From assembly GCA_050633245.1 (NCBI GenBank), contig JBOEGD010000015.1:21681-85680 (forward strand): 64,000 nt of DNA, written 5' to 3'. Source of the DNA: Calditrichia bacterium. Lineage in GTDB: Bacteria; Calditrichota; Calditrichia; RBG-13-44-9; J075. Below, in pieces: positions 4,831-64,000 of this stretch (its first letter is position 1; every line of letters begins with the position of its first letter). The position numbers and the translations under genes are program-made. The notes below the pieces were generated by a model, which saw only the letters and a list, made by a program, of their open reading frames with translations, was not told where the DNA came from and made no database searches.

Positions 4831-4957
4831 AATAATTTAGCTCAAATTCTGACCGCCTCTCACCGTTTCTCACTTTCTTCTCTCACAAAATTACCCGTTA
4901 CCCGTTGCCCGTTTGTTCCTACAGCCTTGAGTGAAACGAAAGGCGTCCTACCCCCTA

Positions 4958-14777: not shown

Positions 14778-15172
14778 AAGAACATCCAATTCTCTTGTGT
14801 GACAGAAAGCTATTCAATTTCGCAGGATGCGCTTTGACGAAAATCAAGTCGCACGTTTTTGCTTTCATTATTTCCCCTCTCCATGCCATGAGTAAACCTC
14901 GATATGAGCAGTAGATAGAATATAAATAATACCTTTTCCTTCGTTACGATTTTTGATTGCTTAACTGTAAATGCAACCCTCATCTACTCGGAGCCATTTA
15001 AAGAAATCACATTCCCGGGAATTCTCCCATTCATAGCTTCGAAACTCCAGCTGTAAAACTTCAAAAGGTAATTTGTGTGGTAGGGGTGTTTCTCGATTGC
15101 TGCGTAGTAAGGGCTAAACGAAGTATGGTAAGAGCCATACGTCTTACGCAACAATCCAAAAGGAACATTTTT

Positions 15173-47251: not shown

Positions 47252-47673
47252 TCACACCCCCCTATCCAGCCCACGATACTGAATCGCTTCCCCAACATGA
47301 TCGGGCAGGATCTTTTCTCTTTCTGCCAGATCGGCAATAGTGCGGCTAACCTTGAGAATGCGGTACTAGGCCCGCGCTTAGAGTCCCAGACGCAATGGCT
47401 GCACGTAGCAGCTTCGAGCCCTCTGCGTCGATTTTGCAAAACTTACGGATCTCTCGCGGCTACATGTCTGCATTGCAGAAGAGGTGCTTTTGATCTTTGA
47501 AGCGAGCAGTTTGCAGTTCGCGGGCGGCCTGGACGCGGGCTCGGATGACATCCGACGATTCACCTCCCGCCTGCCCGGCAAGCTTGTCGTAGGCAACTGC
47601 CGGGACTTCGACGTGAATATCGATCCGGTCTAAGAGCGGACCGCTAAATACGCTGCATATAGCGTCGCACCAT
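47252..47673 (-). pseudogene. comM: 3' fragment of comM/yifB (Mg-chelatase-like AAA+ ATPase) with stops and frameshifts
   Basis: VRRYMQRI/SGPLLDRIDIHVEVP...ESSDVIRARVQAAR..Q..RF...NADM*...[12 protein letters not shown]...[10 protein letters not shown]. Confidence 0.9.
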
Positions 47674-47916
47674 GCAGTTGTTACTACAAAGGAAGTAAGT
47701 GTAGTAAGATCAGGAGGTAGGTTTTCAAGACATTCGAGAATTGATAAACTACTTTGAAGAATTCCTCAGGACATCAAAGGAAGTGAAGAGCTTTAAACAT
47801 ATACAATGCCAGAACCCATTTCGCCCAAAAAAATGCGTTGGTGAATCATGACGAGGACTATTTCTATTTTACGGTGGCACTATTTTTCGAGGAGAGTACC
47901 CTGTTATCTAAAAATG

Positions 47917-47949
47917 AGAATTGCCAATAGGTTCACTATTGGCAATTCT
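47917..47949. terminator. Stem-loop after the S8 peptidase gene
   Basis: Perfect 14-bp stem AGAATTGCCAATAG-5 nt-CTATTGGCAATTCT. Confidence 0.7.
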
Positions 47950-47969: not shown

Positions 47970-50123
47970 TTAACTTACTTGAATAGTGACCTTCACCGGT
48001 CCTTTTTCAAGCACGGTATTTGCTTCACTCGCATTGTCTTCTACTTTCTTCGTCAGGGCTGGAGGCAAGATTGAATGATCATCTGAGCCCTGCATCGTCA
48101 CGCTATAGTTCTCTTCGAACGATTCTTCCTCGGAAGCGAAGCTCTCACCTGCTTCGGCGGGGCCTGTCATCGGTCGTGAAGGACGCCAATATGTATAATT
48201 CCAACGGGCACTCCAACTATAGCGATAACGAGAACGATTGCCATGAGCCTTCAGCAACACATTCTCAAAGCGAATGTCATCTCCGGAGCCACCACCTGCA
48301 GTAAGACCGGGTTGCATAATTCCACTTGGATCTCCACGATAAGTGAAACGATCAATTTCATTACCGGCAGGGTTGAATGAGCGTAGTGTGAAGCTATTTA
48401 TACGAATTCGGTTTAATCCGCTATTATACAATCGAAATAGCCGGAATCGCATATAGCATTCCTGCCCTCTGCCAAGGAACTGAAGGTTTAGACGTGTCTG
48501 ATACCATAGCCTTCTTGCCGCATGTGAAGCCTTAAGAGCATCGATCCTTCCCCACCCGTGCTCATCGTCTTTTCCACGAGGGCCTAAATCACGAGCTGAT
48601 AAGCGCAAGATATCACGAACTTCCCACTGTCGTAGATTCGGGTCGACAGACAGCACAAGCGCAGCTACACCAGCAGCATTAGGTGTTGCTGAAGAGGTAC
48701 CATTAAAGTTCCGCATGTAATTGCCGCTGGTGTATCCACCTGAACCTGTAATATCTGTCGTGTAAATGTGAACTCCCGGGGCAAGAAAATCCTGCTCAGG
48801 CCCATAATTGCTTCCCCACCAGTTTTCTCCATCACGACTGGTTGTGCTCTTCCGCTGGTCCCATTCATTTGAAGCACCACAGGCTAACGATTCAGGGTAT
48901 TTTGCAGGATAACTAATGTTTCTCGCATTTCGGTTACCCGAAGCTGAAACAACAACACAACCTTTGCCGCCTCTTCCACGAGTTTTCGCAAAGACAAAAG
49001 CGTTTCGAATAACAGAGCTATAGCTACCGCCGCCCCAGCTATTACTAATAACATCTGCCCCACGAATTACAGCCGTACGAATTCCTCTTGCAATCCAGGT
49101 AGTGCTGGTTGTCCAGGGGGCACCTGCTCGACGACTGTAAGCAATACGTACCGGAAGAATTTTGCATTTAGGCGCAACACCGGCAATTCCTCGCGAGTTT
49201 CCTGCTGTGGCAGCTGCAATACCTGCACAGGCGGTACCGTGTCCATCCCATCGGTTAGGGTTTTGATTATTATCGTTTCCAACCGCATCATAGGGAGTAA
49301 CTATTTTTCCAGAAAGATCAGGATGGCTGGTTTGAACACCTTCATCAACAATTGCAATTTTAATGGCAGGGCTTCCCTTACTTATGCGCCAGGCTTGCGG
49401 CACTCTCATCTTGCGCAATGCCCACTGGTTACGATATAGGGGATCATTTACAATGGCCTGAGAGTCTATTTGGCTGTCCTCAAGGCTTTCTGCAACCTCA
49501 TTGTCAGGATCAACAAGCTCAATTTCCTCTTCTGCTACGTCGAACTCGCTTCCATTTGCTACGATAAATGCTGGCTGTTTCATTTGATAAAGCCAATCGG
49601 GTTCAGAATATTCTGTCAACTCACTCTGATGATAAATATTGGCCAACTCCAAGGCATCATGTTTCGACTTAGGCGTCACTCGCAGTAAATAACTGTTGGG
49701 ACCCAGATCATCCTTTTCAACAATTTCTACCTTATACTTTTCATTCAGATCGTTAATTTCGGCTTCCTGAGCATCCGATTTAAACTGAACGCGGAATTGG
49801 GGAACTAAAATCATCAATTCATCCGGGTCTCCATTGGGCATCTGAAAAACCGGGAACAGGCTTTCGACACCATCCTCTTCGGTCAATACCGAGGTAGCTT
49901 CTGATACAACCTCATCCGAAGCGTCCGTATCAACGCCAACCAACATGACATCGAATGAATTTAGTTCTTCTGCCGATTCACCATTTTGCAAACCTTTACA
50001 CTTCTCTACAACTCCCTTTAATTGGGAAATATCAGACTCATTGTTAATCTTTAAGGCCACATAGTTTTTTGAAGGGGAAAGTTCGATTTTTTCCTCTTCT
50101 GCAAAATAAAAATTATCAGACAT
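47970..50123 (-). CDS. S8 family subtilase with acidic pro-domain and no signal peptide
   Basis: Triad IVDEG, GHGTACAG, NGTSSATP; oxyanion ASGN; GWGRIDA. Confidence 0.92.
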   Translation of the reverse strand: MSDNFYFAEEEKIELSPSKNYVALKINNESDISQLKGVVEKCKGLQNGESAEELNSFDVMLVGVDTDASDEVVSEATSVLTEEDGVESLFPVFQMPNGDPDELMILVPQFRVQFKSDAQEAEINDLNEKYKVEIVEKDDLGPNSYLLRVTPKSKHDALELANIYHQSELTEYSEPDWLYQMKQPAFIVANGSEFDVAEEEIELVDPDNEVAESLEDSQIDSQAIVNDPLYRNQWALRKMRVPQAWRISKGSPAIKIAIVDEGVQTSHPDLSGKIVTPYDAVGNDNNQNPNRWDGHGTACAGIAAATAGNSRGIAGVAPKCKILPVRIAYSRRAGAPWTTSTTWIARGIRTAVIRGADVISNSWGGGSYSSVIRNAFVFAKTRGRGGKGCVVVSASGNRNARNISYPAKYPESLACGASNEWDQRKSTTSRDGENWWGSNYGPEQDFLAPGVHIYTTDITGSGGYTSGNYMRNFNGTSSATPNAAGVAALVLSVDPNLRQWEVRDILRLSARDLGPRGKDDEHGWGRIDALKASHAARRLWYQTRLNLQFLGRGQECYMRFRLFRLYNSGLNRIRINSFTLRSFNPAGNEIDRFTYRGDPSGIMQPGLTAGGGSGDDIRFENVLLKAHGNRSRYRYSWSARWNYTYWRPSRPMTGPAEAGESFASEEESFEENYSVTMQGSDDHSILPPALTKKVEDNASEANTVLEKGPVKVTIQVS

Positions 50124-50338: not shown

Positions 50339-50369
50339 CTTATAAGACAAAAGCTGGATAACCGGACAA
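50339..50369 (-). promoter_or_regulatory. Island promoter motif, copy A (upstream of S8)
   Basis: Minus strand TTGTCCG-18 nt-TATAAG. Confidence 0.7.
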
Positions 50370-50753
50370 GTTTTCGAGATTTTCTTTAGGGGTGCTCTAA
50401 AGCAATACGTATGGTTAGAAGGCATAAAAAGCGTAAAAAGGCTACTTGCGAGGAATTATCTTAACTTCTTAAAGTGCCCAAGAAGGGGATGCAATAGATA
50501 CTGATTAAAGTCAGATTGTGTGAAGTGAAACTTAAAAAGGTAAAAAGACCATCCCGGAGATTTAATGAACACGTCCTGAATTGCCAGTTTTTATCATAAA
50601 AAAAGCGTGATGACAATTAGAAACAGCCGAACTTTGAATCGTTATCTCTATATTGTCAACACGCATAAGTACAACGTCCAAAATCTTTCCAGTTGCGCAC
50701 TCCTTATTAGGTAAAGTACTCCGTATTGACTGGTAGCTTATTTGGCAACAAGC

Positions 50754-52472
50754 TTACTCTTGACCCAGAATACATAAAGGGGCATTGTGCGTCAACCAAG
50801 TCCAAACTATCCTTGTGTCCTCAATGATAAACCGCGGCTCACCTGTAAAAAAGACGAGCTCAAGAATAGACTTTTCAGTCACCGGATCAAGATCAGAATC
50901 CTTGCTGGTAAACATAATCTGTTCCACTCCACTATGTCCTAAATGATCTAGTCCGAAGTAGTGTCCCAGCTCATGGATCAACACCCAACGAAACATATAG
51001 ACTGGTTGTCTGTCTTTAAAAGTTACACCACTTTCCTGAACAGATACCGGTGGCCGCCACCACGATGCGTTGCCATTAAATGCATTATCGGAATATTTAA
51101 ATATTGCAATAACCGGTGGCTTACATAAGTCATCACCATTAGCATTTCGACCTATTCTTTGAAAAAGGCGAGTTTGATTCAATCGATCGACTGGGATTTC
51201 GTCACTAAACCTAACCCGATACGCCTCGATCGGAACATTTTCAAGCCGTAAGCCCAATGTTCGCGCCTTACGTTGAGCCAACTTGTAGTATCGGTTGAAC
51301 ACTTGTTTGCTTATTGCAAAAATTTCGAATTCGGCAACCGACTCCCGGCCATAACTCAGATATGCATCAAGATCTCTCCAGGTTACCCGAACATTCGTGC
51401 CGCGGTAAACCACTTCTGTTGCAGGATGATTCAGTATTCCATTACCACAGCCTGTTGTGTATCCTGCCGCCTGGAAAAGGTTCAGAATTTTCTCCTGATG
51501 TAGCGCTCGCAGATCAATATTGTCCTGACGGGAGTTGATACTCATTCGCATAAGGTTCGGTGCTATTGACAAGCCCAATCTGGTACTTCCAAGTTGAATG
51601 TTTTCGCGTGCCATCTCACGTAAGTTTTCATCTTTAAAGGTCTGGGATATTGCAGCTTCAATGATTGCCTCAATTTGATCTAACTCTAGAATATCTCGCG
51701 CGCTACCAAGGAAACCGCCGCCAATTCTTTGACCTGTGATAGAAATTGTACGCGCAATTGCTCCAACAGCACTGCTTCCTGCCTTGATAAGCCCACAAGG
51801 ATCCAGACGCAAAACACCCAAAACCAGATTCTGAAGTATTTCTATCACGTTTCGTGTAAGATCCACCAGGCCTTCGAAAACATTGAACACCCATTTGATG
51901 AGTGATGCCACAAAGAGGCCGATTATTCCAAAGCTTGATCCGAGATCTACAAAAAACTCTTCAGTAATATCAAGTAATTCAGAAACGGCGTCAACGATTT
52001 CGACAGCGAGATCAAGGACATCTTCTATCACATCGGTTGCGATAAACCACAAGTCCGTAATGGACTTTAATGCACTTAGGGGGTCAGTTGGAAGGCAAAT
52101 GATAAAATCTACCACCCATTTTGAAACGCGTACGATCGTCATTACAACAATACGCACAACTTCAATTACAATACGACAGACAAGTTCGACGAGCCATTCA
52201 CCAACAACCTGAATGACCCACTCAACGATTTTGGTAACCAAAACTGCCAGCCAGCAAAACCACTTGTTGCAACATGCACACCACCATTTACACTTCCTCC
52301 GTTTGCAGTTTCGTTCAAGACGCACACGCCACCTCTCTATTGGCCGACGTATCCTGCGTTCAACCCAACGCCGTGCTTCACTGCAGGCTTCGCGAGCTCG
52401 CTCAAAAGATCTGGCCACGGGAACTACTACATTTTCAGATACCCATTTTCCTACTTCCCTGCACACAGACAT
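50754..52472 (-). CDS. Hypothetical protein: Cys/Trp/Arg-rich N-terminus, long amphipathic helices, C-terminal metzincin-like motif
   Basis: CKRRKCKWWCACCNKWFCW; HELGHYFGLDH followed by EQIMF (Met-turn-like); AGGAGG RBS. Confidence 0.75.
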   Translation of the reverse strand: MSVCREVGKWVSENVVVPVARSFERAREACSEARRWVERRIRRPIERWRVRLERNCKRRKCKWWCACCNKWFCWLAVLVTKIVEWVIQVVGEWLVELVCRIVIEVVRIVVMTIVRVSKWVVDFIICLPTDPLSALKSITDLWFIATDVIEDVLDLAVEIVDAVSELLDITEEFFVDLGSSFGIIGLFVASLIKWVFNVFEGLVDLTRNVIEILQNLVLGVLRLDPCGLIKAGSSAVGAIARTISITGQRIGGGFLGSARDILELDQIEAIIEAAISQTFKDENLREMARENIQLGSTRLGLSIAPNLMRMSINSRQDNIDLRALHQEKILNLFQAAGYTTGCGNGILNHPATEVVYRGTNVRVTWRDLDAYLSYGRESVAEFEIFAISKQVFNRYYKLAQRKARTLGLRLENVPIEAYRVRFSDEIPVDRLNQTRLFQRIGRNANGDDLCKPPVIAIFKYSDNAFNGNASWWRPPVSVQESGVTFKDRQPVYMFRWVLIHELGHYFGLDHLGHSGVEQIMFTSKDSDLDPVTEKSILELVFFTGEPRFIIEDTRIVWTWLTHNAPLCILGQE

Positions 52473-52487
52473 TTCAAAGCCTCCTTT

Positions 52488-52937
52488 TTAGTTATTTTCT
52501 GATTCAAATAGCAGCGATAAATGATTCAGATCGCGCCTGATACCCAGTCGGGCAATGGATTTACCAATCATCTTACCTAATAGTGCTGAAGTAGTAACAA
52601 CCAAGGCACCAACTGAAATGAATAGCGAAAGAGAAAAATATCCTTTTTCCAGAACAAATAGCAGGTAAGCAACCAGGAAGATCAGTGTGAATATTGATCC
52701 GGTTTGACAGCCGCAATCTCGCAGGTTGTTGTTAAATTGACCTGTCCACCGGCGTACTTCTGTCGGATTTATTTGTGGATGTTTAATTCGAATCTCATCA
52801 ACATTAAGCCTCCGAACCAAACTTATCTGATCTTGCAATTCCTGAATATCTGTCAGCGATGAAAGAAGCACGGTTTTGTGTTCATGATCGCCATTCGGTT
52901 GATGTGTGGAAGCATCCAGAACATCTTTCTGATACAT
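52488..52937 (-). CDS. Two-TM hypothetical membrane protein with CGC motif
   Basis: DCGCQTG followed by two hydrophobic helices; AAGGAG RBS. Confidence 0.7.
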   Translation of the reverse strand: MYQKDVLDASTHQPNGDHEHKTVLLSSLTDIQELQDQISLVRRLNVDEIRIKHPQINPTEVRRWTGQFNNNLRDCGCQTGSIFTLIFLVAYLLFVLEKGYFSLSLFISVGALVVTTSALLGKMIGKSIARLGIRRDLNHLSLLFESENN

Positions 52938-52955
52938 TTTAATCTCCTTTGTAAA

Positions 52956-52985
52956 GCTACCGGCCGAATATCCTCGGCCGGTAGC
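52956..52985. terminator. Intra-operon GC-rich hairpin
   Basis: GCTACCGGCCGA-6 nt-TCGGCCGGTAGC. Confidence 0.55.
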
Positions 52986-52994
52986 AAACTTCGA

Positions 52995-53540
52995 TCACGG
53001 AAAGTTAATTGTGACGGTCGGAGAGGTTACAATGTGCCCGTGAAAATTCTCGACAGTAACCCACATCTGATAGCGAATGCGATCGAAACTGCCAAGCCCA
53101 GCATCTAAATCCATTTTATGAGTGATTCTTCGTATTGTTGGCACCTGATCACCAACACCTGCCCCGGTATTATTTTCTTTAAAAGGCCGCCCTACTAGTC
53201 CGGGTCCCTGAACCACACCGGTTTTGAATTTGGTAACGCTTCTCCAAAGCTCGATTTTTTTCACCCCACCGTCTTTATCGGTACCACCGACCAGAATGTT
53301 TGCAAAGTCAGCATTTGTGGATAGTGTTGCGGCCTGAGATGCCTGAGTTAGGTCGATAGCAGCATCATTAGGATCATCTGTCGTAACAATGAACCGTAAT
53401 GTTGGGGGCGTCGAATCGCTTGCCGGGACCGTAACCTTGGCAGACTCACTACTACACTTACTTCCCTGTAGAATCAAAAAGGACATTAGGCCTAACAGCA
53501 CTACCAGCATTCTGAGTAGGAATTTCATATTGCTCTCCAT
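52995..53540 (-). CDS. Hypothetical exported (lipo)protein, Ig-like
   Basis: Signal peptide ending QGSKC; DSTPP...D.DGGVK...ENFHG beta-sandwich pattern. Confidence 0.7.
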   Translation of the reverse strand: MESNMKFLLRMLVVLLGLMSFLILQGSKCSSESAKVTVPASDSTPPTLRFIVTTDDPNDAAIDLTQASQAATLSTNADFANILVGGTDKDGGVKKIELWRSVTKFKTGVVQGPGLVGRPFKENNTGAGVGDQVPTIRRITHKMDLDAGLGSFDRIRYQMWVTVENFHGHIVTSPTVTINFP

Positions 53541-53577
53541 TAATCATAGATTTTCAAGCTTACTTAGCCTGTAGAAT

Positions 53578-55035
53578 TCACTTTTTTAGATAACTGTCTG
53601 CAACCTTTTTTAGTTGCCGACATAGATCAGCCTGTTTAGAGATCACCTCCAATGCTTCGGGAACTGCTTTCGAAAAACACTCATCAACAAAATCAAGGTC
53701 CACAACATCTTCCGGACAGCTCGCTTTCAGGTTCCGTTCAAGAACCGGTTTTATTGCGCTTGCCAAAACAAGATCCTCAAGCGGCAATGGAATGCGCAAT
53801 TCCTGTTTTGGTCCCGGATCTGGATGGATAAGTTTAAAGTCTGCAAACATCTTGGGTGGTAAAATATCCAGGATCCATTGACGAATAAGACACTGGGGTG
53901 CAAATTGCCCGATGGCATCCTTAGCCAATCCACCGAAAAACCAGGGAGTAAGAATTTTGGGATCGAGCATCACTAAAGGATCTCTCCATGAAGCAAAAAC
54001 AACGATTCCATTACGCATTGACGATTGTTTCGATTTTGGAGCAAGCCAGGCAGCCACATTCATAAAATATTGCTCTATTGTTGACAGATGTGTCATTCCA
54101 ACCGGCGTGGCAGCAAAACCATCAAGATTGATATCAAACCAGTGGTGCCAGGTAGAATCAGCAACAATTCGCCCCACGTCTGCACTGTGACCATTGTATA
54201 CGCTCACCAGACCAACTTCACGGCCGACATCGGCATCCGGAGCTTCGATTCTTCCCCATGCCACAACCTCTACTTTCGGCTGATATCCACTCTTCGTAGG
54301 CCATTCTGAGTTTGGGTAAGTTGTCGGAGCAATTGCCTCACCTTCATGCTGGTGGTCAGGAAAAACTCTTATCGGGCCGTTTTTTCCACACAAAATGGGG
54401 TGTGGATATTTTCGTGTACACAGGGTCGGACTCCAACGCCAAGTCGGATAGTATTTAAGGCGAACCCGCTGGGGCTCATCATCGCTCTGATCTGTGAAAT
54501 TGTAATTCGAATCCGTTCCGGATCGCAGTGTATTATTCCACTCCCCCGTTCTTGCTGCCGGAGCAGGATACATTCGCATTGTTCCAGCACGTTTTATAGA
54601 GCCGGCAATTCCTTTACCGAGGGAAGCGTGGTCACCTGTATGCAATACGCCACCACCATTGTCCATAAAATCATGTACAACGTTTAATTCATCAGCTGAT
54701 AGTAAATCTCGGGATGAAATTCCGAAAAGCCAGAGTTCATCAAACTTTTCCAAATCGATTTCATCGAGAGTTTTGTTGTCCATATCTGCCGATGGATCAG
54801 AATTTCGGTGAATGAGCGTCACCTTAAACTTTACCCACGGCCATGGATCAGATTGAAGTGCTGCAATTACCCGCTGCAATCCATCAAAACTGCCCCCGTT
54901 AAATCTGATCGATCCTTCTGCATATATTGCTATTCTGACTATTGCCGGGACTCGAAACCATGGGAAGTTTCTTAAATCAATCACTCTGTGACGTTCAATT
55001 AATCCCGGTAATAACTTCTTCCATCTTAATTCCAT
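53578..55035 (-). CDS. Hypothetical protein with a class-I GATase-like/ThuA-like fold
   Basis: FDELWLFG...FMDNGGGVLHTGDH; DQSDD.PQ, PDHQHEG, GRIVADSTWHHW; AAGGAG RBS. Confidence 0.7.
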   Translation of the reverse strand: MELRWKKLLPGLIERHRVIDLRNFPWFRVPAIVRIAIYAEGSIRFNGGSFDGLQRVIAALQSDPWPWVKFKVTLIHRNSDPSADMDNKTLDEIDLEKFDELWLFGISSRDLLSADELNVVHDFMDNGGGVLHTGDHASLGKGIAGSIKRAGTMRMYPAPAARTGEWNNTLRSGTDSNYNFTDQSDDEPQRVRLKYYPTWRWSPTLCTRKYPHPILCGKNGPIRVFPDHQHEGEAIAPTTYPNSEWPTKSGYQPKVEVVAWGRIEAPDADVGREVGLVSVYNGHSADVGRIVADSTWHHWFDINLDGFAATPVGMTHLSTIEQYFMNVAAWLAPKSKQSSMRNGIVVFASWRDPLVMLDPKILTPWFFGGLAKDAIGQFAPQCLIRQWILDILPPKMFADFKLIHPDPGPKQELRIPLPLEDLVLASAIKPVLERNLKASCPEDVVDLDFVDECFSKAVPEALEVISKQADLCRQLKKVADSYLKK

Positions 55036-55088
55036 GAGACTCTCCTTACTGATTGGATAGGTAGTTAGTTGTATTTCGTCTTCTCCCT

Positions 55089-55119
55089 CTTATAGAATAA
55101 AATCTACCAGGACGGACAA
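55089..55119 (-). promoter_or_regulatory. Island promoter motif, copy B (upstream of the four-gene operon)
   Basis: Minus strand A-tract, then TTGTCCG-18 nt-TATAAG. Confidence 0.72.
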
Positions 55120-55458
55120 TTTTTTTGAAATTCACTAACGAAGAAGCCTTTATTTGCCGGATTGGCAATGGAAATTTTTTAGACGGGGTTAATAGAATTG
55201 TGTTGTTTAAATGTTTCTTTAGAACTTTCACAAATGAAGTAGAAGGAGAAGGAACTAAGAGGCAGGAACAGGTATTTATTCCGAAACAAGGGATAGATGA
55301 TTGTTGACAAGCATATTCACATCAATGAATAAATATCAACAAAAAAAGCAGTTCTATTGTTAAAGTCCGGAAAAAACCATAGATTATCATAATTCTTACT
55401 CCCCTCCACGATCGCTGAACATGTTGTTTTTAATATATTTTTAGCTTTTCAAAAAAGT

Positions 55459-55489
55459 TTGTCCGAAAAAACCAAAATTCTTCTATAAC
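55459..55489 (+). promoter_or_regulatory. Island promoter motif, copy C (upstream of 55828/CHAT)
   Basis: TTGTCCG-18 nt-TATAAC; a degenerate copy AAGTCCG-18 nt-CATAAT lies at 55363-55393. Confidence 0.7.
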
Positions 55490-55827
55490 TGATTGAATTC
55501 ATAGTCTGCACCGTCATTATCACAGGCTTTTGAAATTATTATACAGGATGTCAGGGATTTTTTTTGAGCAGATTTTGTGGGGATATCAGTCGTATTCACC
55601 GCTGTCTAATTTTTCCAATTCCTTCAATTAGGGATAGGGATTAGATTTACGACTATATTTTCTTATAGACTTGGCTTAAAGTTGAGGCAATTTTTATTTA
55701 TTATATTGTCACCGCTCAGCCAGAATTCTACTTAGCGTAGATAGTGCTCCCCCCTGCTTCCAAAATTTCAATGCCTTAAGCAGTTTGTGATTGATGACTT
55801 ACTCAATCATATGGAGGAAAGAAAGCA

Positions 55828-57243
55828 ATGAAAGAACTATTCAATCGGCTATTCAAGCCAATTCCAATTATTCTTATACTTATTATCGTCGTTATTGTCT
55901 GGTACTGTAACTACGATTGTTGCTTACCGAAAAAATGTGCCCTCGACGTAAATACAATTACCATAAGCGACACGATATCGGTAAGTAATGTTGTGGATTC
56001 AACATTCTTCGGAGAGTTTATACTAAACGCAACCCTTCCAGCTCAAATCTGCAACAGAAAGTTGCCGCTCAATATACACTTAAAAAATACATCTAATATG
56101 GATTTGTACTTTTCAGCAAACTTACTGATTGACACTCTAAAATATGTTAGTGAACCTAGTAAAATAGATTCAACCTACCCATTATTTCGAGGATTAATAA
56201 TCCCAGCCGGAAACAGTCTGATAATCGATAAAAACTATCACTTTCCTCCGGCAGTCTTATCTGAGTTCGGCAATGCCAATATACGGGTAAAAATCGGCGG
56301 CGGAGTTTGTGTGAACTTGCCGGATGGGGAACCCTGCGATATCAACTCTTGGGATCAACCCCTTCCATTTAGTTTAAATACTTCGAAAGGAGAGATTCAG
56401 GTAGCAAACGCTTCACTCATTTCAATTCCCTCTTTACCTACCGTTCCCTCGCTTCCCATTATGGTGCATGTAGAAGGAAGCACTGTTGAAACAGAAGAAG
56501 GTGAAGTGGAGACCTATTTTACTGCTCAGGCCCGAATCGCTTACAATGACCCTGAAATTATTGATGACGATCCGAAAATTGATTCTAACGGGTTGTTAAC
56601 TTTTTACCTGCAAACACATATAGACGGATCCGGAGAGGTTGAAGATGTTGATATTGGCTATAATGTTCATGTCAAGTTCCCCGGAACAACTAATTACTTA
56701 CCTTATGCGGAACATAGTGGTACGGTCACTGCATCGCAAACAGGACAAACACCCCTCACTCCGTGGAAGAAACACACTGTTAGCATTCAATTACCCAAGT
56801 ACTGGCCAAGAGATTACTATGATCTTAATATTACTGGCGGGCCTGGTCAGGAAGAGTGTGATCTACCAATATCAGAGCTAAATTATCCTTCTTCAGGCAG
56901 CCATCCAGGGCTCATCATTACTATGATACCGCAGGGCTTAAACGCAAGTGGGGGTAGGGATTATAATATTCTTTTTGTGACTCCTACCGGAGGTGTAGGT
57001 GAGGAAATCGGAGCTGAAATTTCCTATTCGAGTGAATCTTCTACGGGACAGAATATCTTATCCATCTTCTCAAACCTTGAAGATGGTTCTTACACTTACA
57101 TTTATGACCCGACAAAAACACTCCTGACCACGACAGTTCCAGGTGACCCTGATGCGTTCTGGTTATTCGTAAAAATCCGTAAAATCACATCGTCAGGAAT
57201 TGTAACAAACGAATACATGGGAGTAACTGAATTTACCCCATAA
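55828..57243 (+). CDS. Membrane-anchored extracytoplasmic hypothetical protein (beta-rich)
   Basis: GGAGG RBS; N-terminal TM followed by CNYDCC; Pro/Thr/Gly-rich beta domains. Confidence 0.75.
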   Translation: MKELFNRLFKPIPIILILIIVVIVWYCNYDCCLPKKCALDVNTITISDTISVSNVVDSTFFGEFILNATLPAQICNRKLPLNIHLKNTSNMDLYFSANLLIDTLKYVSEPSKIDSTYPLFRGLIIPAGNSLIIDKNYHFPPAVLSEFGNANIRVKIGGGVCVNLPDGEPCDINSWDQPLPFSLNTSKGEIQVANASLISIPSLPTVPSLPIMVHVEGSTVETEEGEVETYFTAQARIAYNDPEIIDDDPKIDSNGLLTFYLQTHIDGSGEVEDVDIGYNVHVKFPGTTNYLPYAEHSGTVTASQTGQTPLTPWKKHTVSIQLPKYWPRDYYDLNITGGPGQEECDLPISELNYPSSGSHPGLIITMIPQGLNASGGRDYNILFVTPTGGVGEEIGAEISYSSESSTGQNILSIFSNLEDGSYTYIYDPTKTLLTTTVPGDPDAFWLFVKIRKITSSGIVTNEYMGVTEFTP

Positions 57244-57280
57244 TTACAGTGTAGTCAAGAACCGACAAGAGACAGGATCT

Positions 57281-60151
57281 ATGATTTACAAGGCAATGCC
57301 GTTTGCTTCAAAAGCTTCTCTTCAGATTCGTATAGTATTTGTTATCGCCATGAGTCTGTTGGGAAGCTATTGTCTTTTTGCACAAGCTGCCCGAAGCGAG
57401 GACAACAAAAGCAGTTTTCTGACTGCCGATTCTCTCTGCAAAGCCGGGCTAATAAACTATTGGCAGAATCGCTATCCAAAAGCTATTTTGAATTTTCAAA
57501 AATCCATAGATATTGTTCTTCATGAAGCGGGCGCGGCAAATCTCGATGAACTAAATACGCTTGTCATTCAAAAGCTTTCTCTGGAAAATCAGGTCTTGCT
57601 GCATACCTCCTTGAATCGCCTGGGCGTTGTGCAACGAGTAAAGGGAAACACATTTTCCGCCATCGATATTCACCTAAAAGCAAGTAGATTTGCAGCTATC
57701 CTGCCTCCGCCCGACAGCAAGGAATTGGCAGCAAAAATAAATTCCAACTTAAGCCTGGACTACCTCCGCAATGGAGAGTTGCAGCTTGCCAAATACCATG
57801 GGGACCTTGCTCTCCAGAATTGGAAGGAACTGCAGAATCAATATCCGGGCATAGTACCAGCAACAAAAAAACGAATCAGTCAGGTATACAATAACAACGG
57901 TCTCATTTTAAGTCAATCCAACTTTTGGCGAGACGCCTTGGGTGCCTTCGGCAAGTCGCTTTCCATAAAGGCTGAATTGCCTAAACAAGGCGGCGCCAGA
58001 GGAAGGGCTATCAATTTCAATAATATCGGAGAGGTGTATTTTAAGATGGGCGTTTGCGATTCGGCTCTTTTTTGGTTCCGGAAGGCAAACAGCATTCGTG
58101 AAACGAACGGGATTTCAAATCATCTCGAATACGCCCTTACCCAGATAAACATTGGACGAGGATTAGCATGTGAAGGTAATTATCATGACGCTCGCTTCAT
58201 GTTTGCCAGTAGTCTGCAACAGATGGAATCTCTGTTGGGAGATCGACATCCTGAATTGGCCCGGGCTCTTCAGAATCTCGCAGCAACCTTCAGTGAACAT
58301 GGACGGCCGGTGCAGGCACTTAAAATTCTGAAAAAAGCGAAAATGACACTAAGCTATCACGTCCCCGGTAGAGCGCTACCCATAGCTTTAAGCAGCAAAG
58401 GGGTCTCCAGTGCTATGCCGCAATGGATTGTCCCGCTAATTTCAAAAACAGACATGGTTTCTATTTTCCGTCAGGAAGCAGCTGTAAACGAACAAATTGC
58501 CGCTATCCCCCAAACCACGCGTAAAAATCAAGTTCGCCTCCTGAAGGGTATACTTGCGAAATGTGATTCAGCGAATCAGATATTAGACGTACTGAGAGAC
58601 GACTACATTACAGCTGAAGATCAAAGACGCGTTGGTTTGGAAGGAAAACAGCTCATAAATATTGGGTTAAGATCTGCTTACAAACTCTTCCAATTGCTGG
58701 GTAATAATGCTTATATGTCTATTGCTTTTGAACTGATGGAAAAATCCAAAGCGAACACCATACTCAAAGCAATAAGAGAAAGTGGTGCCAGAAACTATGG
58801 AGATATTTCAAAGGCACTAACCGAAGAAGAAACGGCCATTAAAGTAGACTTGGCCTATTACCGCAATCGCCTTTTCGATATTACCCGCTACCAGAAAAGT
58901 GCCCCTGATACGCTGCAACAGGAAGAAATGGAATGTAGGAGCGCAATAGTAAAAGGTTTTCAGGCATATGGTAATGTTAAAAACAAAATCAAAACGTCGC
59001 ATCAAAACTACTTCGACCTAAAATACAATCTTTCACGAGTAAGTTTAGACACCTTACAGCAAGTACTGGTCGATAAAAAAATCAATCTGGTAAACTACTT
59101 TTGGGGAGATGAACATCTTTTCGTTTTTCTGGTAAATGCTCAGGGTAGACATTTTTTTCAACTGCCTTTGCCAACTACTGAAGCAATTTTAAACTTCAGA
59201 AAAAGCATAATTTTTGCGGATAACGATTACCTACCGATTGGCTCACAGCTATTTGACAAGCTGTTAAAACCTGTATTGCCATATTTTGTAGGCAATCAAC
59301 TGCTTATTATCCCGGACGGCCTACTCCACTTACTACCCTTCGAGGCATTAATAGAAAATACCAGTGCGCAATCCGAAGATCGTAATCAACTCACTTTTGT
59401 TATAGAGAAGTATGTGATTGGTTATAATTACTCAGCAACTCTTTTCGTAGAACAGCTCGAAAAAAATCGTGTTTACACCGATAGATCTTTTTTAGGAATC
59501 GCGCCGGTCTTGTTTCACAATAATCGTCAATTACAGCTAACGAGCTTTGCACCGCAAGCAAGCCTTCCTGACTTACCACATTCAAAGCAAGAAGTTATGG
59601 CGATTGCGAATATTTTTAACGAATTCGGCCTTCAAAATACAACTCTGATCGAAGAGGAGGCTTCGAAAACAAAATTCTTATCCGAGGCAATTCGCCATAA
59701 CATTGTTCACATTGCCTCACACGTGATCCTAAACGCCCCGGAATCTCAATTCTCACGGATGTTTTTGTGGAAAGAGAATGACCTATCAACGACGCAAGAC
59801 AATGGCTATCTAAGCCTGCGGGATATTTTTAATCTTCGCTTAAATGCTGATTTGGCTGTGCTGAACGGTTGCGATAGCGGTTTGGGAGATAACATTGATG
59901 GTGAGGGAGTAATTGGTTTTGGTCGAGGGTTGTTTTATGCCGGTTCAAATAATCTGTTATTAACACTTTGGAAGATAGACGATCAAGCTTCCGCTGTCCT
60001 GACAACAAAATTTTATTCTGAGGTTCTCAATAATAACAAACCGTATCCTCTTGCCTTGCAAACGGCCAAACTATTTCTTTTAAGAGGTGAAGGTTATTCT
60101 CATCCTCGCTTCTGGGCTTCAACTATCTTCCTGGGCAACAACTTCTACTAA
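57281..60151 (+). CDS. Exported TPR-CHAT (caspase-like, clan CD) protease
   Basis: Signal-like N-terminus; TPRs (YNNNG, FNNIGEVY, LGDRHPELA); IIPDGLL..LPFEAL; His in HIASH; Cys in LNGCDSG; GEG..G, LWKIDD, HPRFWA. Confidence 0.9.
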   Translation: MIYKAMPFASKASLQIRIVFVIAMSLLGSYCLFAQAARSEDNKSSFLTADSLCKAGLINYWQNRYPKAILNFQKSIDIVLHEAGAANLDELNTLVIQKLSLENQVLLHTSLNRLGVVQRVKGNTFSAIDIHLKASRFAAILPPPDSKELAAKINSNLSLDYLRNGELQLAKYHGDLALQNWKELQNQYPGIVPATKKRISQVYNNNGLILSQSNFWRDALGAFGKSLSIKAELPKQGGARGRAINFNNIGEVYFKMGVCDSALFWFRKANSIRETNGISNHLEYALTQINIGRGLACEGNYHDARFMFASSLQQMESLLGDRHPELARALQNLAATFSEHGRPVQALKILKKAKMTLSYHVPGRALPIALSSKGVSSAMPQWIVPLISKTDMVSIFRQEAAVNEQIAAIPQTTRKNQVRLLKGILAKCDSANQILDVLRDDYITAEDQRRVGLEGKQLINIGLRSAYKLFQLLGNNAYMSIAFELMEKSKANTILKAIRESGARNYGDISKALTEEETAIKVDLAYYRNRLFDITRYQKSAPDTLQQEEMECRSAIVKGFQAYGNVKNKIKTSHQNYFDLKYNLSRVSLDTLQQVLVDKKINLVNYFWGDEHLFVFLVNAQGRHFFQLPLPTTEAILNFRKSIIFADNDYLPIGSQLFDKLLKPVLPYFVGNQLLIIPDGLLHLLPFEALIENTSAQSEDRNQLTFVIEKYVIGYNYSATLFVEQLEKNRVYTDRSFLGIAPVLFHNNRQLQLTSFAPQASLPDLPHSKQEVMAIANIFNEFGLQNTTLIEEEASKTKFLSEAIRHNIVHIASHVILNAPESQFSRMFLWKENDLSTTQDNGYLSLRDIFNLRLNADLAVLNGCDSGLGDNIDGEGVIGFGRGLFYAGSNNLLLTLWKIDDQASAVLTTKFYSEVLNNNKPYPLALQTAKLFLLRGEGYSHPRFWASTIFLGNNFY

Positions 60152-60921
60152 TCCGAAATAATGTAAATGCGTCGTTGCAAAAGAAGATTTTCATTGTTGC
60201 GAATACCCCAGTAGTACAATCCACTTCCCTGCTCTACCGAAATTGTAACTTCACTTATACCAACAGCAACCGGACTCTGAATAAGTTTTTGGTTTTGATT
60301 ATCCTTAACAACCAGCTCAACCGGTTCATCAAAAGGAGGCCATGTAAAGGTGATTTCTTTTTCAAACTGAAGTGATAAGTCTTTTGGAATGTACTTTTGA
60401 GGATTAGTCAATATGGAGCTACGAGTTGTAGCGTTCACAAGCTTATCCAACATAGCATAATCTTTGAATGAGGAATTTAGTATGGTTATGCCTTCACTCT
60501 CGGCATAGGCGAATAGGCTTTTATCCTTTGTAGCAATATCTTCTGCTTTATATTTTTCTGCCAGTGCAATAAGCTCATTCGATGCCGGAGGGATTCCGAA
60601 ACGCCAAACACAAAAAATCAGCGTAAACAATAGCATTCCATTTCTCAATAGAACTCGCGTATCGTACGATTTCTTATTCCCCGAAATCATATTGTCAGAG
60701 ATTGAAGTTCGAGATGCACATCGAGGGCACTTTTCGACATGAGCCCTCATTTGTTTTAAGCGCCCTCTCTCGGCCTCAGGTAAGGTCTCTGGATTTTGCA
60801 TAGAATGCTCAACCCAAAATTTCACATCAAGGTCAGACAAATGGAGTCCAATGCCGATCGCCGAGTAATATGATGGATTCTCAGGCTTATTTTCCTTTTT
60901 ATTTGGCATATTAGCTCTCAA
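60148..60921 (-). CDS. zf-HC2 (ZAS) membrane anti-sigma-like protein
   Basis: HVEKCPRC (HxxxCxxC), single TM, extracytoplasmic TRS...FTW...GLYYW domain; directly downstream of the sigma-like gene. Confidence 0.7.
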   Translation of the reverse strand: MRANMPNKKENKPENPSYYSAIGIGLHLSDLDVKFWVEHSMQNPETLPEAERGRLKQMRAHVEKCPRCASRTSISDNMISGNKKSYDTRVLLRNGMLLFTLIFCVWRFGIPPASNELIALAEKYKAEDIATKDKSLFAYAESEGITILNSSFKDYAMLDKLVNATTRSSILTNPQKYIPKDLSLQFEKEITFTWPPFDEPVELVVKDNQNQKLIQSPVAVGISEVTISVEQGSGLYYWGIRNNENLLLQRRIYIISD

Positions 60922-61013
60922 TTTAATGCACTTTGGGTTGAATAATTGCTTCAGACCAGGTTAAAGTCTATTACTATTTTTCGCAAAATTAAGCAAAACA
61001 ATACTCTAAAAAA

Positions 61014-62651
61014 TTAATCTCTAAAAATAAAATCACACTGCGGTAATGCCTCTTTAAAAACCTGCTTTTCGATAACACTTATTGTTGTAGAATCTAGAAT
61101 GACTTTTCTTAGATGATCGAGGGTTGTTATTGCCTCAAGGATTGTATCTTTGGTGAAAACGTTTCCAGCTAAATTAAGTTCTCTCACCTTGCTTAAGTGC
61201 AAGAACCACTCAGGCAGACTGTCCCAAAGTCGATCAGACAAATCAACAGCAACAATATTTTTCAATAACTCTTCCGGAAAACTCATATCAAAATCATTTT
61301 GCGACATGAATGAATAATCATCAATACTTCTTATAGAATCGGCAAAAAAGCTCTCAGTGAACGGAATAATACTTTTAACCAGGGTCTTCTCATCTGATTT
61401 AAAAAGTTTCCTTATTTCAATTCGAAAACGATCTTCTCTGCGTCGTAATGTATCAGGCCTTACTTCTTGTAAATCGGGTTTTAATTTCGCCAAAAAGCTG
61501 GCAAATTCAGAGTAAAAAGTAGTACTACTATCCAGCTCGGCAACCTGTCGTAAATCTTTTAAAGCATCAATCAATGCAAGGTCTATCTTATCTTTACTAA
61601 TCAGGTTATTCAGGTCGGGGTTTAAATAGTTTATATGCAACCCCCACTTAATTTTGATCATCATACGATTTTCTGGCCGCTTCGCCAGTTGCTCAATCAG
61701 CTCAGGTATTTTTATTTTACGCTCAAGATTTGGTGTAAGCTCATTCTCGCTCCGAGAATGCAATAAGTTTCCCTCATTAAATCCAAAAGACTCGTTACCA
61801 TTGTACCGGGTTTTTAGTTGAGCATATTCCAAGAGGACAGATTTTTGGTCATTCGAAAGCTCCTCCAGTATAGAATTATTGATAAAAGAATAGAGCTCTT
61901 TTCGTCCTTTAAAAAATCGCTCTTGCTCGTTACCAAAAGGATCATCACCAATTTTATTCAGACCTTCACTCTCCAGAAAGGCATTATAGTTTTCTTTATC
62001 CAGTTTATAAAAACAATCAGAGCCGACATTCTGTTTCAGAACCTCACTAAGCGCAAAAGTTATTGCCCTATAAAGATAGGTTTTAAATTCTGCTTTTTGC
62101 GAATCATATTGCTGAAAGCTGGGAAGTTTTTCACAAAGATACTCTTTAACCAAAGAAAGAACCATTTCCTGGCGTTCTAAAGAAAGTTTAAGCAGGAATC
62201 CACCAAACTGTCGGCGCGACACGCGTTCAATATAGTCATCATAACAGCCCAAGATTAAAAATGCAAAACGTTCAGGACTCTCTAAACCAGCACTAATTAT
62301 TTCTTTGGGTTCTTTATCACAAATAATCTTATAGCATGCCTCGATAGATTCTTTTACTAATTGTAGTGAACGATCTAAACCAATAATACCGGATAAATCA
62401 GTCGTTCGTAACGTCAACAATTCAGTAGTCACCTTTAGGTTATCGCCTCGGGACACTTTTGCGTATTCTCTGCTAATTGTAGAGAGCCGTTCTTTTAAAG
62501 TCTCTTCAAATCTCTTTGGTATAGGAAAGCCTGATTTCTGGAGCACATGCTTAATATTAAGCAGCAATTTCTTATTTAAGAAAAAGTGTAGTCGCTTGTG
62601 GTATTTAAAGGAATTATATTCCATAGCGATTTCCATAAAAATAATTGTCAA
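61014..62651 (-). CDS. Sigma-70/ECF-like protein with C-terminal leucine-rich repeats
   Basis: Region-2-like QYDSQKAEFKTYLYRAITFAL; region-4-like PENRMMIKIKWG...PDTLRRREDRFR; LRRs VDLSDR..DSLP, VRELNLAGN, LRKVILD. Start is probably 62636 or 62624. Confidence 0.6.
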   Translation of the reverse strand: MTIIFMEIAMEYNSFKYHKRLHFFLNKKLLLNIKHVLQKSGFPIPKRFEETLKERLSTISREYAKVSRGDNLKVTTELLTLRTTDLSGIIGLDRSLQLVKESIEACYKIICDKEPKEIISAGLESPERFAFLILGCYDDYIERVSRRQFGGFLLKLSLERQEMVLSLVKEYLCEKLPSFQQYDSQKAEFKTYLYRAITFALSEVLKQNVGSDCFYKLDKENYNAFLESEGLNKIGDDPFGNEQERFFKGRKELYSFINNSILEELSNDQKSVLLEYAQLKTRYNGNESFGFNEGNLLHSRSENELTPNLERKIKIPELIEQLAKRPENRMMIKIKWGLHINYLNPDLNNLISKDKIDLALIDALKDLRQVAELDSSTTFYSEFASFLAKLKPDLQEVRPDTLRRREDRFRIEIRKLFKSDEKTLVKSIIPFTESFFADSIRSIDDYSFMSQNDFDMSFPEELLKNIVAVDLSDRLWDSLPEWFLHLSKVRELNLAGNVFTKDTILEAITTLDHLRKVILDSTTISVIEKQVFKEALPQCDFIFRD

Positions 62652-62682
62652 TGACAGATGGAGTAGCCGTATTACTTTACTT

Positions 62683-62713
62683 CTTATAGATTAAATATTG
62701 GTTTTTCGGACAA
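62683..62713 (-). promoter_or_regulatory. Island promoter motif, copy D (upstream of the sigma-like gene)
   Basis: Minus strand TTGTCCG-aaaaaccaatatttaatc-TATAAG; its spacer resembles that of copy C. Confidence 0.72.
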
Positions 62714-63009
62714 AATATTTTGATACGATCTCTCGGGCTCTTACTACTACTAGATCCTTGTAATTTCTAGCAGCATAGCTGATGTTCTTTTTAAGCCGTT
62801 CTATAGAAATGTTGGCTATTTTTGAACTATCCAGTTACAAAATGCATTTTACAAAGCAACTTTCTTCGGAACACAATATGCGGAATATTTACTAACAAAA
62901 ACAGAATTGAACTATGAACCGCACAAATACCTTGAATGGGGAGTAAAACAATATAAAGGCAATAAAGGCCCATAGCCAATTAGATCTTTATTCCTCGCCC
63001 CCCTAACCA

Positions 63010-63106
63010 CCCTATCCAGCCCTCGATACTGAATTACCTGCCCAACAGGATGCGGCTGAGAACACTGGCACTCGCGCATGGTGTCAGTGTAGTAGCCGCA
63101 GGAGCA
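63010..63106 (-). pseudogene. comM: Second comM/yifB remnant: zinc-motif segment fused in frame to the extreme C-terminus
   Basis: Translates [32 protein letters not shown]. 63010-63051 matches 47260-47301 at 36/42 nt. Confidence 0.8.
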
Positions 63107-63281
63107 CCCGTGCAGTCGCTAGTTACAAACGAGCTAAGTTCAATAAAATCAAGTGGCGGGTTACGACTTGTTCTGTAGAACATTCAATAATTTAGCGAAT
63201 AACTAAAAGAGTAAAGGCTTTGTAAAGGTAATTCGCTTAGAAAGAACTCTACTTTTGAAAAGCACGATTTTTCGGGGGGAT

Positions 63282-63425
63282 TACATAGGACATAATTCTT
63301 TTCTGCTACGTGGCATGGATAACGTGAAAGTGGGGTTTGCAATGTCCACTATGGCGTATAATATGAAGCGCGCAATTAACATTATTGGAGTAGGAAATCT
63401 AGTTGACGGGCTTAAGACGATATAG
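63282..63425 (+). mobile_element. IS1182-family transposase C-terminal remnant
   Basis: GHNSFLLRGMDNVKVGFAMSTMAYNMKRAINIIGV matches the FxLRGxxxVxxExxLxxxAYNxKR pattern. Confidence 0.7.
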
Positions 63426-63519
63426 AGAGACTTAGTGTAAATTCTTTGGCATCAAGCAGCGTATGTTTGGTCTAAAAACACGACAAAACTCGCAATACGT
63501 TGTGGAAGGAACTTGCCTA

Positions 63520-64000
63520 ATATGCAGATTCGGTGCAATCGGCAGATTGTGTTTAGAATCCGTTGTGACTTTAAACTTGCGCAGCCTGAGAGCCCTGAGC
63601 CCTTCCTCACGCATAATACGCGCTATCCGGTCAGGCTGCACTCTATCCCCAATGCACGCAGCTCGCGATAAATCCGTGGACTACCATAGCGATTTCTGTA
63701 TTCTTTAAACGTTGCCCTTACATGCGTTCGTAATGCCTGATTGGCACGCTGCCGATTGCTGATTGGACGTTTGAGCCAATTATAGTAACCGCTTGGTGAT
63801 ACACACAGATTGCGGCACAGTCTTTTCACAGTAAATGCGCGGCGATGAGTATGAATGAATTCATACTTCATTTGCTGTTTTTCGAAAAGAAGGCCAGAGC
63901 TTTTTTTAGTATTTCACGATCCTCTTTAACCGAGGCCAACTCGCGTTTGAGTTGCAGATTCTCTTCCTCCACCGACAAGCGGTTGCCGTTTCCTGAAAGA
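63520..64000 (-). mobile_element. Degenerate IS3-family element: OrfA end plus frameshifted, truncated OrfB; continues past the window edge
   Basis: OrfA end EDREILKKALAFF with an A7G slippery site at 63900-63907; ATGA overlap; Orf[41 protein letters not shown]; no DDE core. Confidence 0.88.

Follow-up and report, generated by a model that had tools for sequence, protein, structure and literature searches.

The closest described counterpart of the locus treated here is the DdvS/DdvA system of Myxococcus xanthus. In this system, four promoters within one island carry the bipartite motif GTAA-N16-CGT (PMC6061681), and a periplasmic TPR-CHAT module of DdvA was proposed to clip the anti-sigma factor before cleavage by RseP (PMC11506125). 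Extracytoplasmic function (ECF) sigma factors that bear sensor extensions at the C-terminus are also known, and such groups are without an anti-sigma factor according to a review (PMC8999054). The locus analysed here lies in a 64,000-nucleotide (nt) stretch of DNA from a Calditrichia bacterium (assembly GCA_050633245.1, contig JBOEGD010000015.1, positions 21,681 to 85,680). This whole stretch is called the window, and all coordinates are window positions with the strand given for each feature. The window contains a foreign-looking island of about 15 kb in which one bipartite motif, TTGTCCG-N18-TATAAS (S is G or C), stands before every transcription unit. We consider it fairly probable that the four sites are promoters of an island-private regulon, read by the island's own highly divergent sigma-70-superfamily factor, which is encoded at 61014-62651. 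The island looks like a self-contained transcription circuit, and it may best be read as a sigma/anti-sigma pair that controls its own expression, in the manner of the Myxococcus pair DdvS/DdvA.

A preliminary description of this DNA had proposed the motif on the basis of four sites. An exact pattern search of the window returned these four at the same coordinates, compared with a mean of 0.02 in dinucleotide shuffles, and four copies were reached in 0 of 100 shuffles. The sites and a degenerate relative are the following:

50339..50369, - strand: P1, TTGTCCG-N18-TATAAG, about 216 nt 5' of the start codon of the S8 protease gene (50123)
55089..55119, - strand: P2, TTGTCCG-N18-TATAAG, 54 nt 5' of the ATG of a four-gene operon (55035)
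55363..55393, + strand: degenerate copy, AAGTCCG-N18-CATAAT, 96 nt 5' of P3
55459..55489, + strand: P3, TTGTCCG-N18-TATAAC, 339 nt 5' of the gene for a 471-amino acid (aa) protein (55828), with a TPR-CHAT gene next
62683..62713, - strand: P4, TTGTCCG-N18-TATAAG, 32-59 nt 5' of the possible starts of the sigma-like gene

All four sites P1-P4 are intergenic (outside open reading frames, ORFs, of at least 120 aa) and co-oriented with the next gene, with one site per transcription unit in 4 of 4 units, as defined from the ORF listing and family scans. The earlier claim that the motif precedes all four apparent units in the correct orientation, the regulator pair's own unit included, was thereby borne out. 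An AAGGAG ribosome site precedes the operon ATG at 55035, and the possible starts of the sigma-like gene are 62651 (TTG), 62636 (ATG) and 62624 (ATG). The flanking features noted before were likewise recovered, namely an A-rich tract 5' of all four sites (cgaaaac, caaaaaaa, caaaaaagt and caaaatatt) and a pyrimidine pair before TATAA, which is TC in three sites and CT in one. Furthermore, a T-rich stretch lies immediately 5' of TATAA at P1-P4. Past the A-tract, the flanks of the four sites are dissimilar. The spacers of P3, P4 and the degenerate copy start with (G)AAAAA(A)CCA, and P3 and P4 are identical at 12 of 18 positions in an ungapped comparison; the spacers of P1 and P2 are unrelated to those of P3 and P4. 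The degenerate copy, which had been listed as a fifth one, has 3 mismatches in 12 fixed positions; it may have arisen by duplication and decayed since, or may act weakly as a second site.

Enrichment at the island had been expected from a genome-wide scan (59 contigs with 6,345,459 bases in total; the gene calls behind all genome-wide statistics are crude ORF heuristics). The scan yielded five full matches, of which four lie in the island. With five copies in the genome the motif is essentially private to the island, and the feared genome-wide abundance before housekeeping genes was not seen. The fifth match, on contig C7 (119154-119184, - strand), occupies an intergenic position flanked by two + strand genes, and no ORF of at least 80 aa with its orientation follows downstream. 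It is probably a product of chance, and it could also drive a small or antisense RNA. Dropping the final S raised the count to six matches in the genome, the added one being inside a long ORF. When one mismatch was allowed, 27 genome sites had a spacer of 18 nt, which is no excess over the 32, 22, 31 and 23 sites with spacers of 16, 17, 19 and 20 nt, and the majority of one-mismatch sites were within ORFs. Owing to this missing excess, no wider regulon is visible, and an extension of the regulon outside the island was rejected on these grounds and because the exact site on contig C7 has no gene to drive.

Since the motif had been defined from the four sites themselves, look-elsewhere controls were run. 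In the whole window, without a filter for clustering or intergenic position, 5 of 10 shuffles contained some 7+5 pattern with four copies, and the bare count is therefore weak evidence by itself. An unbiased cluster scan searched for any 7-mer-N(10-25)-5-mer with at least four copies in 12.4 kb, separated by more than 60 nt, and covered the 690 kb of genome DNA outside ORFs of at least 120 aa. Six bins were found in the real genome. Five of these, at four places (C14:183359-193663, C5:66914-82482, C26:88421-96937 and C6:22488-22834), are repeat families in intergenic DNA, where 6 to 71 keys overlap and the spacer identity goes up to 0.89-1.0. The island bin consists of a single key with diverse spacers (identity 0.28-0.67) and is the only non-repeat cluster in the non-ORF DNA of the genome. 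The same scan on shuffled non-ORF segments gave 0 clusters in 5 of 5 shuffles. The collection contains 86 species genomes of the phylum. In the 85 besides this one, 23 copies of the pattern were counted, spread over 18 genomes, with a maximum of two per genome and never two per contig. As an example of the repeat families from the cluster scan, AATATAA-N18-GCAAG is present on contig C14 in four copies at intervals of about 3.1-3.6 kb.

The motif was further compared with the promoters and sigma genes of the host. In the upstream regions of 2,332 crude gene calls, CTTGAC, TTGACA, TTGACT and TATATT were enriched, and TTGTCC (1.13) and TGTCCG (0.95) were not. Genome-wide, TTGAC.-N-TATA[AT]T shows a sharp peak at N=17, with 28 occurrences compared with about 6 at other spacings, and the host housekeeping promoter is TTGACN-N17-TATAWT (W is A or T). 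The island motif differs from it in the -35 sequence and in the hexamer spacing, which is 19 compared with the host peak of 17, in agreement with the preliminary description. The genome encodes 36 Sigma70_r2 (PF04542) matches, none of them in the island. Within 800 nt upstream of these canonical sigma genes, a site with at most one mismatch was found in 0 of 36 cases. Their best sites have two (4 genes), three (18 genes) or four mismatches (14 genes), which resembles 500 random segments; the island regulator gene, unlike these, has a site with 0 mismatches upstream. Scanning the island with a sigma-70-type consensus gave 29 sites, fewer than the shuffle mean of 35.7. A weak host-type site (TTGGCT-N18-TATATT, 62979-62950) is located upstream of P4, and basal expression from this site is speculative.

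The regulator genes directly behind P4 are arranged as follows:

60148-62651, - strand: P4 unit, gene pair for the 545-aa and 257-aa proteins
61014..62651, - strand: sigma-like protein, 545 aa
60148..60921, - strand: putative membrane anti-sigma factor, 257 aa, with HVEKCPRC (HxxxCxxC) and a hydrophobic helix

In model numbering (start 62624; 9 is to be added for the start at 62651), the sigma-like protein comprises an N-terminal helical part of about 100 aa, a sigma-2-like domain (residues 104-201), an alpha/beta insert (202-275), a helical region with a possible sigma-4 (about 305-430) and a C-terminal leucine-rich repeat (437-536). The guanine-plus-cytosine content of its gene is 0.36 compared with 0.45 for the genome. 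A HMMER search over 1.84 billion representatives found only seven proteins with E<1e-10, which are full-length relatives of 23-28% identity, and its other hits cover the leucine-rich repeat only. The relatives align along the whole length and have in common the motif [YF][DN]xxx[AS]xFKT[FY]LY...FREEN, the spacing of which we take to resemble the consensus of sigma region 2.2-2.4.

An AlphaFold model built on the eight-row family alignment has a mean predicted local distance difference test (pLDDT) score of 68.7, and residues 104-201 reach about 85-93. Foldseek on the full model returned leucine-rich-repeat matches only. In an exhaustive VIA-align search, 12 of the 50 top rows map to model residues of about 94-204 and the other 38 to the leucine-rich repeat. 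All 12 non-repeat rows are sigma factors or transcription-complex chains, the latter being 7d7d_F and 9n9q_C. Residues 104-201 match AlgU with Z 9.1, a root-mean-square deviation of 2.8 and 86 aligned residues. Further sigma-2 matches are SigB (Z 8.8), SigK (8.4), RpoS region 2 (8.1), CnrH (7.8) and pro-sigma-K (7.8), with SigR (7.6), SigI6 (7.4), ShbA (7.3) and sigma-28 (7.2) in lower rows. More weight lies on the agreement among the sigma-2 hits than on their Z values. A comparison of the N-terminal columns of the family with 24 ECF sigma factors of the genome by hhalign aligned query 126-184 with template 21-77, which is region 2 (P 2.8e-4, probability 41%), and, collinear with it, query 383-408 with template 152-177, the recognition helix of region 4.2 (P 0.02). 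When the 146-aa sigma-4 candidate region was folded alone, it reached a pLDDT of 73 and a predicted template-modelling score (pTM) of 0.71, and several sigma-4 rows in its structural search cover the whole target domain, spread over about 105 model residues, as with an insertion. Thus, a sigma-2-like fold is supported in the predicted model and a sigma-4-like region is only suggested. Of the earlier proposal that 61014-62651 encodes a sigma factor, the part that stood is the sigma-2-like fold; recognition by sequence did not, given that Pfam and NCBIfam hold no matching sigma family.

The sigma-like protein was not found in 60 relatives, its first 435 aa were not found in the other 85 genomes of the phylum, and its N-terminus had no match in a plasmid collection. 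One of the relatives, P0004, gave only an unrelated leucine-rich-repeat match in genome contigs and none in metagenome contigs. A degenerate pattern for the family motif FKT[FY]LY[KT]DI was present at 53 metagenome loci, 0 of which encode a relative (tblastn with E<=1e-5 gave 0 hits, and with E<=1 only scraps of 18-63 aa). An alignment search of a 5.8-billion set was swamped by leucine-rich-repeat words, and only the relative P0007, which is encoded on an NCBI contig of 43.5 kb, and the query itself were recovered.

The neighbouring gene product had been called an anti-sigma factor, and it looks like a zinc-binding membrane protein of this type. The 257-aa protein carries the HxxxCxxC motif within MRAHVEKCPRCAS. 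A single hydrophobic helix, LLFTLIFCVWRF, comes next, and the C-terminal domain, to which no fold was assigned, comprises about 135 aa. It contains no CHAT domain. Its matches to RsrA (E 0.029) and zf-HC2 (13.1 bits, E 0.97) are below the model cut-offs. By comparison of coordinates, at least 9 of 14 other equally weak zf-HC2 matches in the genome adjoin canonical sigma genes, and weak matches of such kind are therefore mostly real in this genome. The gap between the two genes is 92 nt, and they are probably co-transcribed. A complex prediction for the two proteins scored 0.00, which gives no verdict and was not used as evidence.

A private regulon read by the island's own factor is the favoured reading. 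What was observed is the motif itself, how rare it is, where its copies lie and how it differs from the host promoter, together with a sigma-2-like fold in the model of the adjacent regulator. Several points weigh against it. On the DNA side, the distances of 216 nt and 339 nt between P1 and P3 and the respective start codons are greater than is usual for a simple promoter, and duplication could explain part of the similarity of the sites because P3, P4 and the degenerate copy have a common spacer sequence. ECF promoters usually have an AAC-type -35 and a CGT-type -10 with a spacer of about 16-17, and the island motif lacks this 'AAC'/'CGT' signature; it rather resembles a mis-spaced housekeeping promoter, TTGtCc-N19-TATAAg. 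On the protein side, the 545-aa protein has no sigma hit in Pfam or NCBIfam, none of the eight family members matched a sigma family of Pfam even with E values of up to 10, and the first 435 residues have no sequence match in the PDB. The sigma-2 Z values of 7-9 are in the middling range of the tool and may reflect a common helical arrangement. In the search with the 146-aa region, the top matches were TetR ligand domains (Z 5.4), and sigma-4 domains occupied 10 of 50 rows with only Z 3.5-4.3. The presumed helix-turn-helix would also have to carry a large insertion.

Among the alternatives, the one that survives best, although we regard it as unlikely, is that a host sigma factor reads the sites, either the housekeeping factor at a sub-optimal spacing of 19 bp or one of the 36 alternatives, and that the 545-aa protein is not the specificity factor. 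TTGTCCG, alone or together with the A-tract, would then be the site of an activator or repressor encoded by the island or the host. Such an arrangement would fit the resemblance of the boxes to TTGACA (4 of 6 positions) and TATAAT (5 of 6), the missing sequence-level sigma signature of the 545-aa protein and the AraC-family gene just outside the island (45660-46778), and activator-dependent promoters are often poorly spaced. It does not fit well with the sharp peak of host promoter spacing at 17, nor with the upstream DNA, in which no conserved second repeat or dyad is present, as an AraC-type or dimeric regulator would have. Moreover, the motif is found at none of the canonical sigma genes, whereas the genes that immediately follow one of the sites encode a protein with a sigma-2 fold and its anti-sigma-like neighbour.

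It is improbable that the sites are a copied promoter cassette or a short-repeat remnant from local duplication, without a dedicated regulator and with only incidental co-regulation. The common spacer sequence of P3, P4 and the degenerate site (12 of 18 for P3 and P4) would agree with copying, as would the rearranged state of the region, which is flanked by insertion-sequence and pseudogene remnants. However, the spacers of P1 and P2 show no relation to the P3 and P4 spacers (the lowest identity is 0.28), yet boxes and spacing are exact in 4 of 4 sites, the flanks beyond the A-tract are not alike, and true repeat families in the cluster scan give many overlapping keys where the island gives one. 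Chance co-occurrence of a 12-13-nt bipartite pattern can practically be dismissed, because the four copies that some 7+5 pattern reaches in half of the unfiltered shuffles of the 64-kb window contrast with 0 clusters in 5 of 5 genome-wide shuffles under the clustering and non-ORF condition, with the correct orientation, one site per unit and further conserved flanking features, and with a background of 0-2 scattered copies in the 85 related genomes.

If the sites do form a regulon of the island's own factor, the circuit might operate as follows; for this scheme, we infer the sigma-4 function, the binding to RNA polymerase and to the anti-sigma factor, the start sites, the signal and the role of the island. 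RNA polymerase with the sigma-like factor would start at P1-P4, where the sigma-4-like part would read TTGTCCG as -35 and the sigma-2-like domain yTATAAs (y is a pyrimidine) as -10, with the spacer fixed at 18 nt (19 from hexamer to hexamer) and transcription beginning about 6-8 nt past TATAAs. P4 is, judged from its sequence and place upstream of the sigma-like gene, a putative autoregulatory position and would provide positive autoregulation of the factor. The co-transcribed 257-aa zinc-motif membrane protein would keep the factor inactive until an envelope signal arrives. On release of the factor, the genes for the S8 protease and for the exported pair of 471-aa and TPR-CHAT proteins would be switched on together with the four-gene membrane/zincin operon. 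By analogy with DdvA, the separately exported TPR-CHAT protein could act on the outer domain of the 257-aa protein, and a further input, from the cytoplasm, could come through the leucine-rich repeat. The role of the island is possibly, in analogy to DdvS/DdvA, an envelope-linked proteolytic or conflict response.

A more far-reaching reading is considerably more tentative. In this case, the 545-aa protein would represent a new, very rare branch of the sigma-70 superfamily. Its layout would begin with a helical part at the N-terminus, followed by sigma-2, then the alpha/beta insert and a sigma-4 interrupted by an insertion, and would end in a leucine-rich repeat that serves as a built-in, NLR-like sensor. 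The repeat, as a ligand or protein sensor, and the membrane anti-sigma factor would together gate the orthogonal promoter TTGTCCG-N18-TATAAG. In such a case, a self-contained circuit of 'one sigma, one promoter, four operons' that moves horizontally would be at hand in the island, with three different proteases (S8, zincin and CHAT) in an envelope-triggered conflict or defence response.

The other features of the transcription units are listed below:

47917..47949, - strand: strong terminator-like hairpin with a 14-bp stem and T-run, directly 3' of the S8 gene
47970..50123, - strand: S8 subtilase, 717 aa, P1 unit, with no signal peptide seen
50754..55035, - strand: four-gene P2 operon encoding proteins of 485, 181, 149 and 572 aa
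53578-55035, - strand: 485-aa protein, first P2 gene, with a ThuA/GATase1-like model
50754-52472, - strand: 572-aa protein with membrane helices and a C-terminal HELGHYFGLDH zincin motif
55828..57243, + strand: 471-aa protein with a membrane anchor or signal at its N-terminus, encoded first in the P3 unit
57281..60151, + strand: caspase-like TPR-CHAT protein, 956 aa, encoded second in the P3 unit

The hairpin at 47917..47949 marks the end of the island's transcription. The genes of the island had all been called orphans, which could not be upheld. The 485-aa protein belongs to a widespread uncharacterised family, and S8 and TPR-CHAT proteins are common families. Atlas neighbours of the 485-aa protein are uncharacterised clusters of 1159, 154 and 102 members, mostly from Pseudomonadota (TM, template-modelling score, 0.78-0.85), with a weaker structural likeness to ThuA/GATase1-like and GIFT-type domains; in the plasmid collection it had only distant 27% matches with uninformative context. 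In the same operon, the 181-aa protein has a signal peptide and the 149-aa protein two membrane helices. The N-terminus of the 572-aa protein is rich in Cys, Trp and Arg, several hydrophobic helices are present, and its Pfam matches to Reprolysin_3 and Peptidase_M10 are below cut-off. From these sequence features, it may be a membrane-embedded metalloprotease of an undescribed type. For the 471-aa protein no family match was found, and the TPR-CHAT protein has an N-terminal signal-like hydrophobic segment. The TPR-CHAT gene (+ strand) and the anti-sigma gene (- strand) converge with a stop codon overlap of 4 bp (60148-60151). No terminator-like hairpin was found between them, and the P3 and P4 units would therefore transcribe into each other. 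The leader behind P3 folds slightly better than shuffles (z -2.2) and contains no ORF of note. PADLOC returned only a match for the subtilase and a weak BovA-like match for the CHAT protein, and PHROGs only the S8 protease and one weak match. Rfam gave nothing between 44000 and 64000 at E<=0.1, and no tRNA was found in the window.

At the left edge of the island, frameshifted gene fragments are located at 47252-47765 (- strand), which we take to be remnants of a comM/YifB-like gene. The right edge (63005-63106) consists of a 46-bp repeat of the 3' end of the comM-like gene and 55 bp of its inner part. A copy with 79% identity, apparently intact, is situated at the end of contig C1 (C1:423462-424200), where the edge pieces are adjacent. 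Because comM-like fragments occur at both edges and are adjacent in the C1 copy, the island appears to sit in a rearranged integration hot spot. The 413-bp comM-like piece matches many genomes of the phylum at 65-79%. Some match to a 16.6-kb query was present in 43 of the 86 genomes (G000 included), and island DNA was not found in the 85 other genomes save for the comM-like remnant and short scraps. Insertion-sequence remnants at 63260-64000 adjoin the island, have copies on contig C11 with 76-87% identity and include the following:

ends near 63424, + strand: C-terminal fragment of a transposase
63260-64000 region, - strand: transposase-like ORF that runs off the window

Elsewhere in the window, an AraC-family gene (45660-46778) lies just outside the island, the heptamer ATCGGTG forms a perfect tandem array of 8.1 copies at 4775-4831, just after an ORF ending at 4758, and a type IX secretion system (T9SS) sorting domain is present in the protein encoded at 15077-16972.

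If the favoured reading is true, the island holds a compact, naturally orthogonal sigma/promoter pair, with a regulator that escapes sequence models and a promoter that is near-absent elsewhere in the host genome, and would be a candidate part for orthogonal gene-expression circuits. It would also extend the range of sigma-70-type factors by a leucine-rich repeat fused to a sigma core, and would show for a second time, now in a distant phylum, that a sigma/anti-sigma pair can wire the island in which it is encoded beside a TPR-CHAT protease. In more general terms, clusters of an exact bipartite motif can flag regulators missed by annotation.

Compared with the canonical sigma-70 promoter (TTGACA-N17-TATAAT), the island motif is likewise bipartite, with an upstream box starting with TTG and a TATAA downstream box, and differs by TTGTCC(G) in place of TTGACA and by a hexamer spacing of 19 instead of 17. 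Like ECF sigma factors with a C-terminal extension, the island protein would have a core of sigma-2 and sigma-4 and, after it, a domain for protein interaction or sensing. Those groups lack an anti-sigma factor, whereas the island locus has an anti-sigma-like gene (PMC8999054). Moreover, the core of the island protein, unlike theirs, carries an additional N-terminal part of 100 aa and an alpha/beta insert, and its extension is a leucine-rich repeat, the word 'leucine' being absent from the text of the review (PMC8999054). A search of the open-access literature found no ECF sigma factor with a leucine-rich-repeat extension and returned only an unrelated review, which is not proof of absence in print.

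With DdvS/DdvA (PMC6061681, PMC11506125), the island would have in common a sigma gene, here a putative one, with an adjacent gene for a zinc-motif, single-pass anti-sigma factor, likewise putative here, as well as autoregulation, four promoters with one bipartite motif in one island, a TPR-CHAT module outside the membrane and a peptidase gene in the regulon. There is no sequence match between the DdvS/DdvA and island proteins, and neither cyclic oligonucleotide-based antiphage signalling system (CBASS) nor clustered regularly interspaced short palindromic repeat (CRISPR) genes were found in the island by PADLOC. DdvS is a canonical ECF sigma factor that uses GTAA-N16-CGT, whereas the island has a divergent sigma-like protein and TTGTCCG-N18-TATAAS, and the TPR-CHAT module is fused to the anti-sigma factor in DdvA, whereas in the island it is a separate exported 956-aa protein in a different transcription unit. 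The principle that an ECF-type pair regulates itself and uses a private motif at several promoters of its island is known already. Different here are a sigma core too divergent for sequence models, further domains at the N-terminus and in the middle, a putative anti-sigma factor alongside a leucine-rich repeat tail, and a promoter that resembles a mis-spaced housekeeping promoter rather than an ECF promoter.

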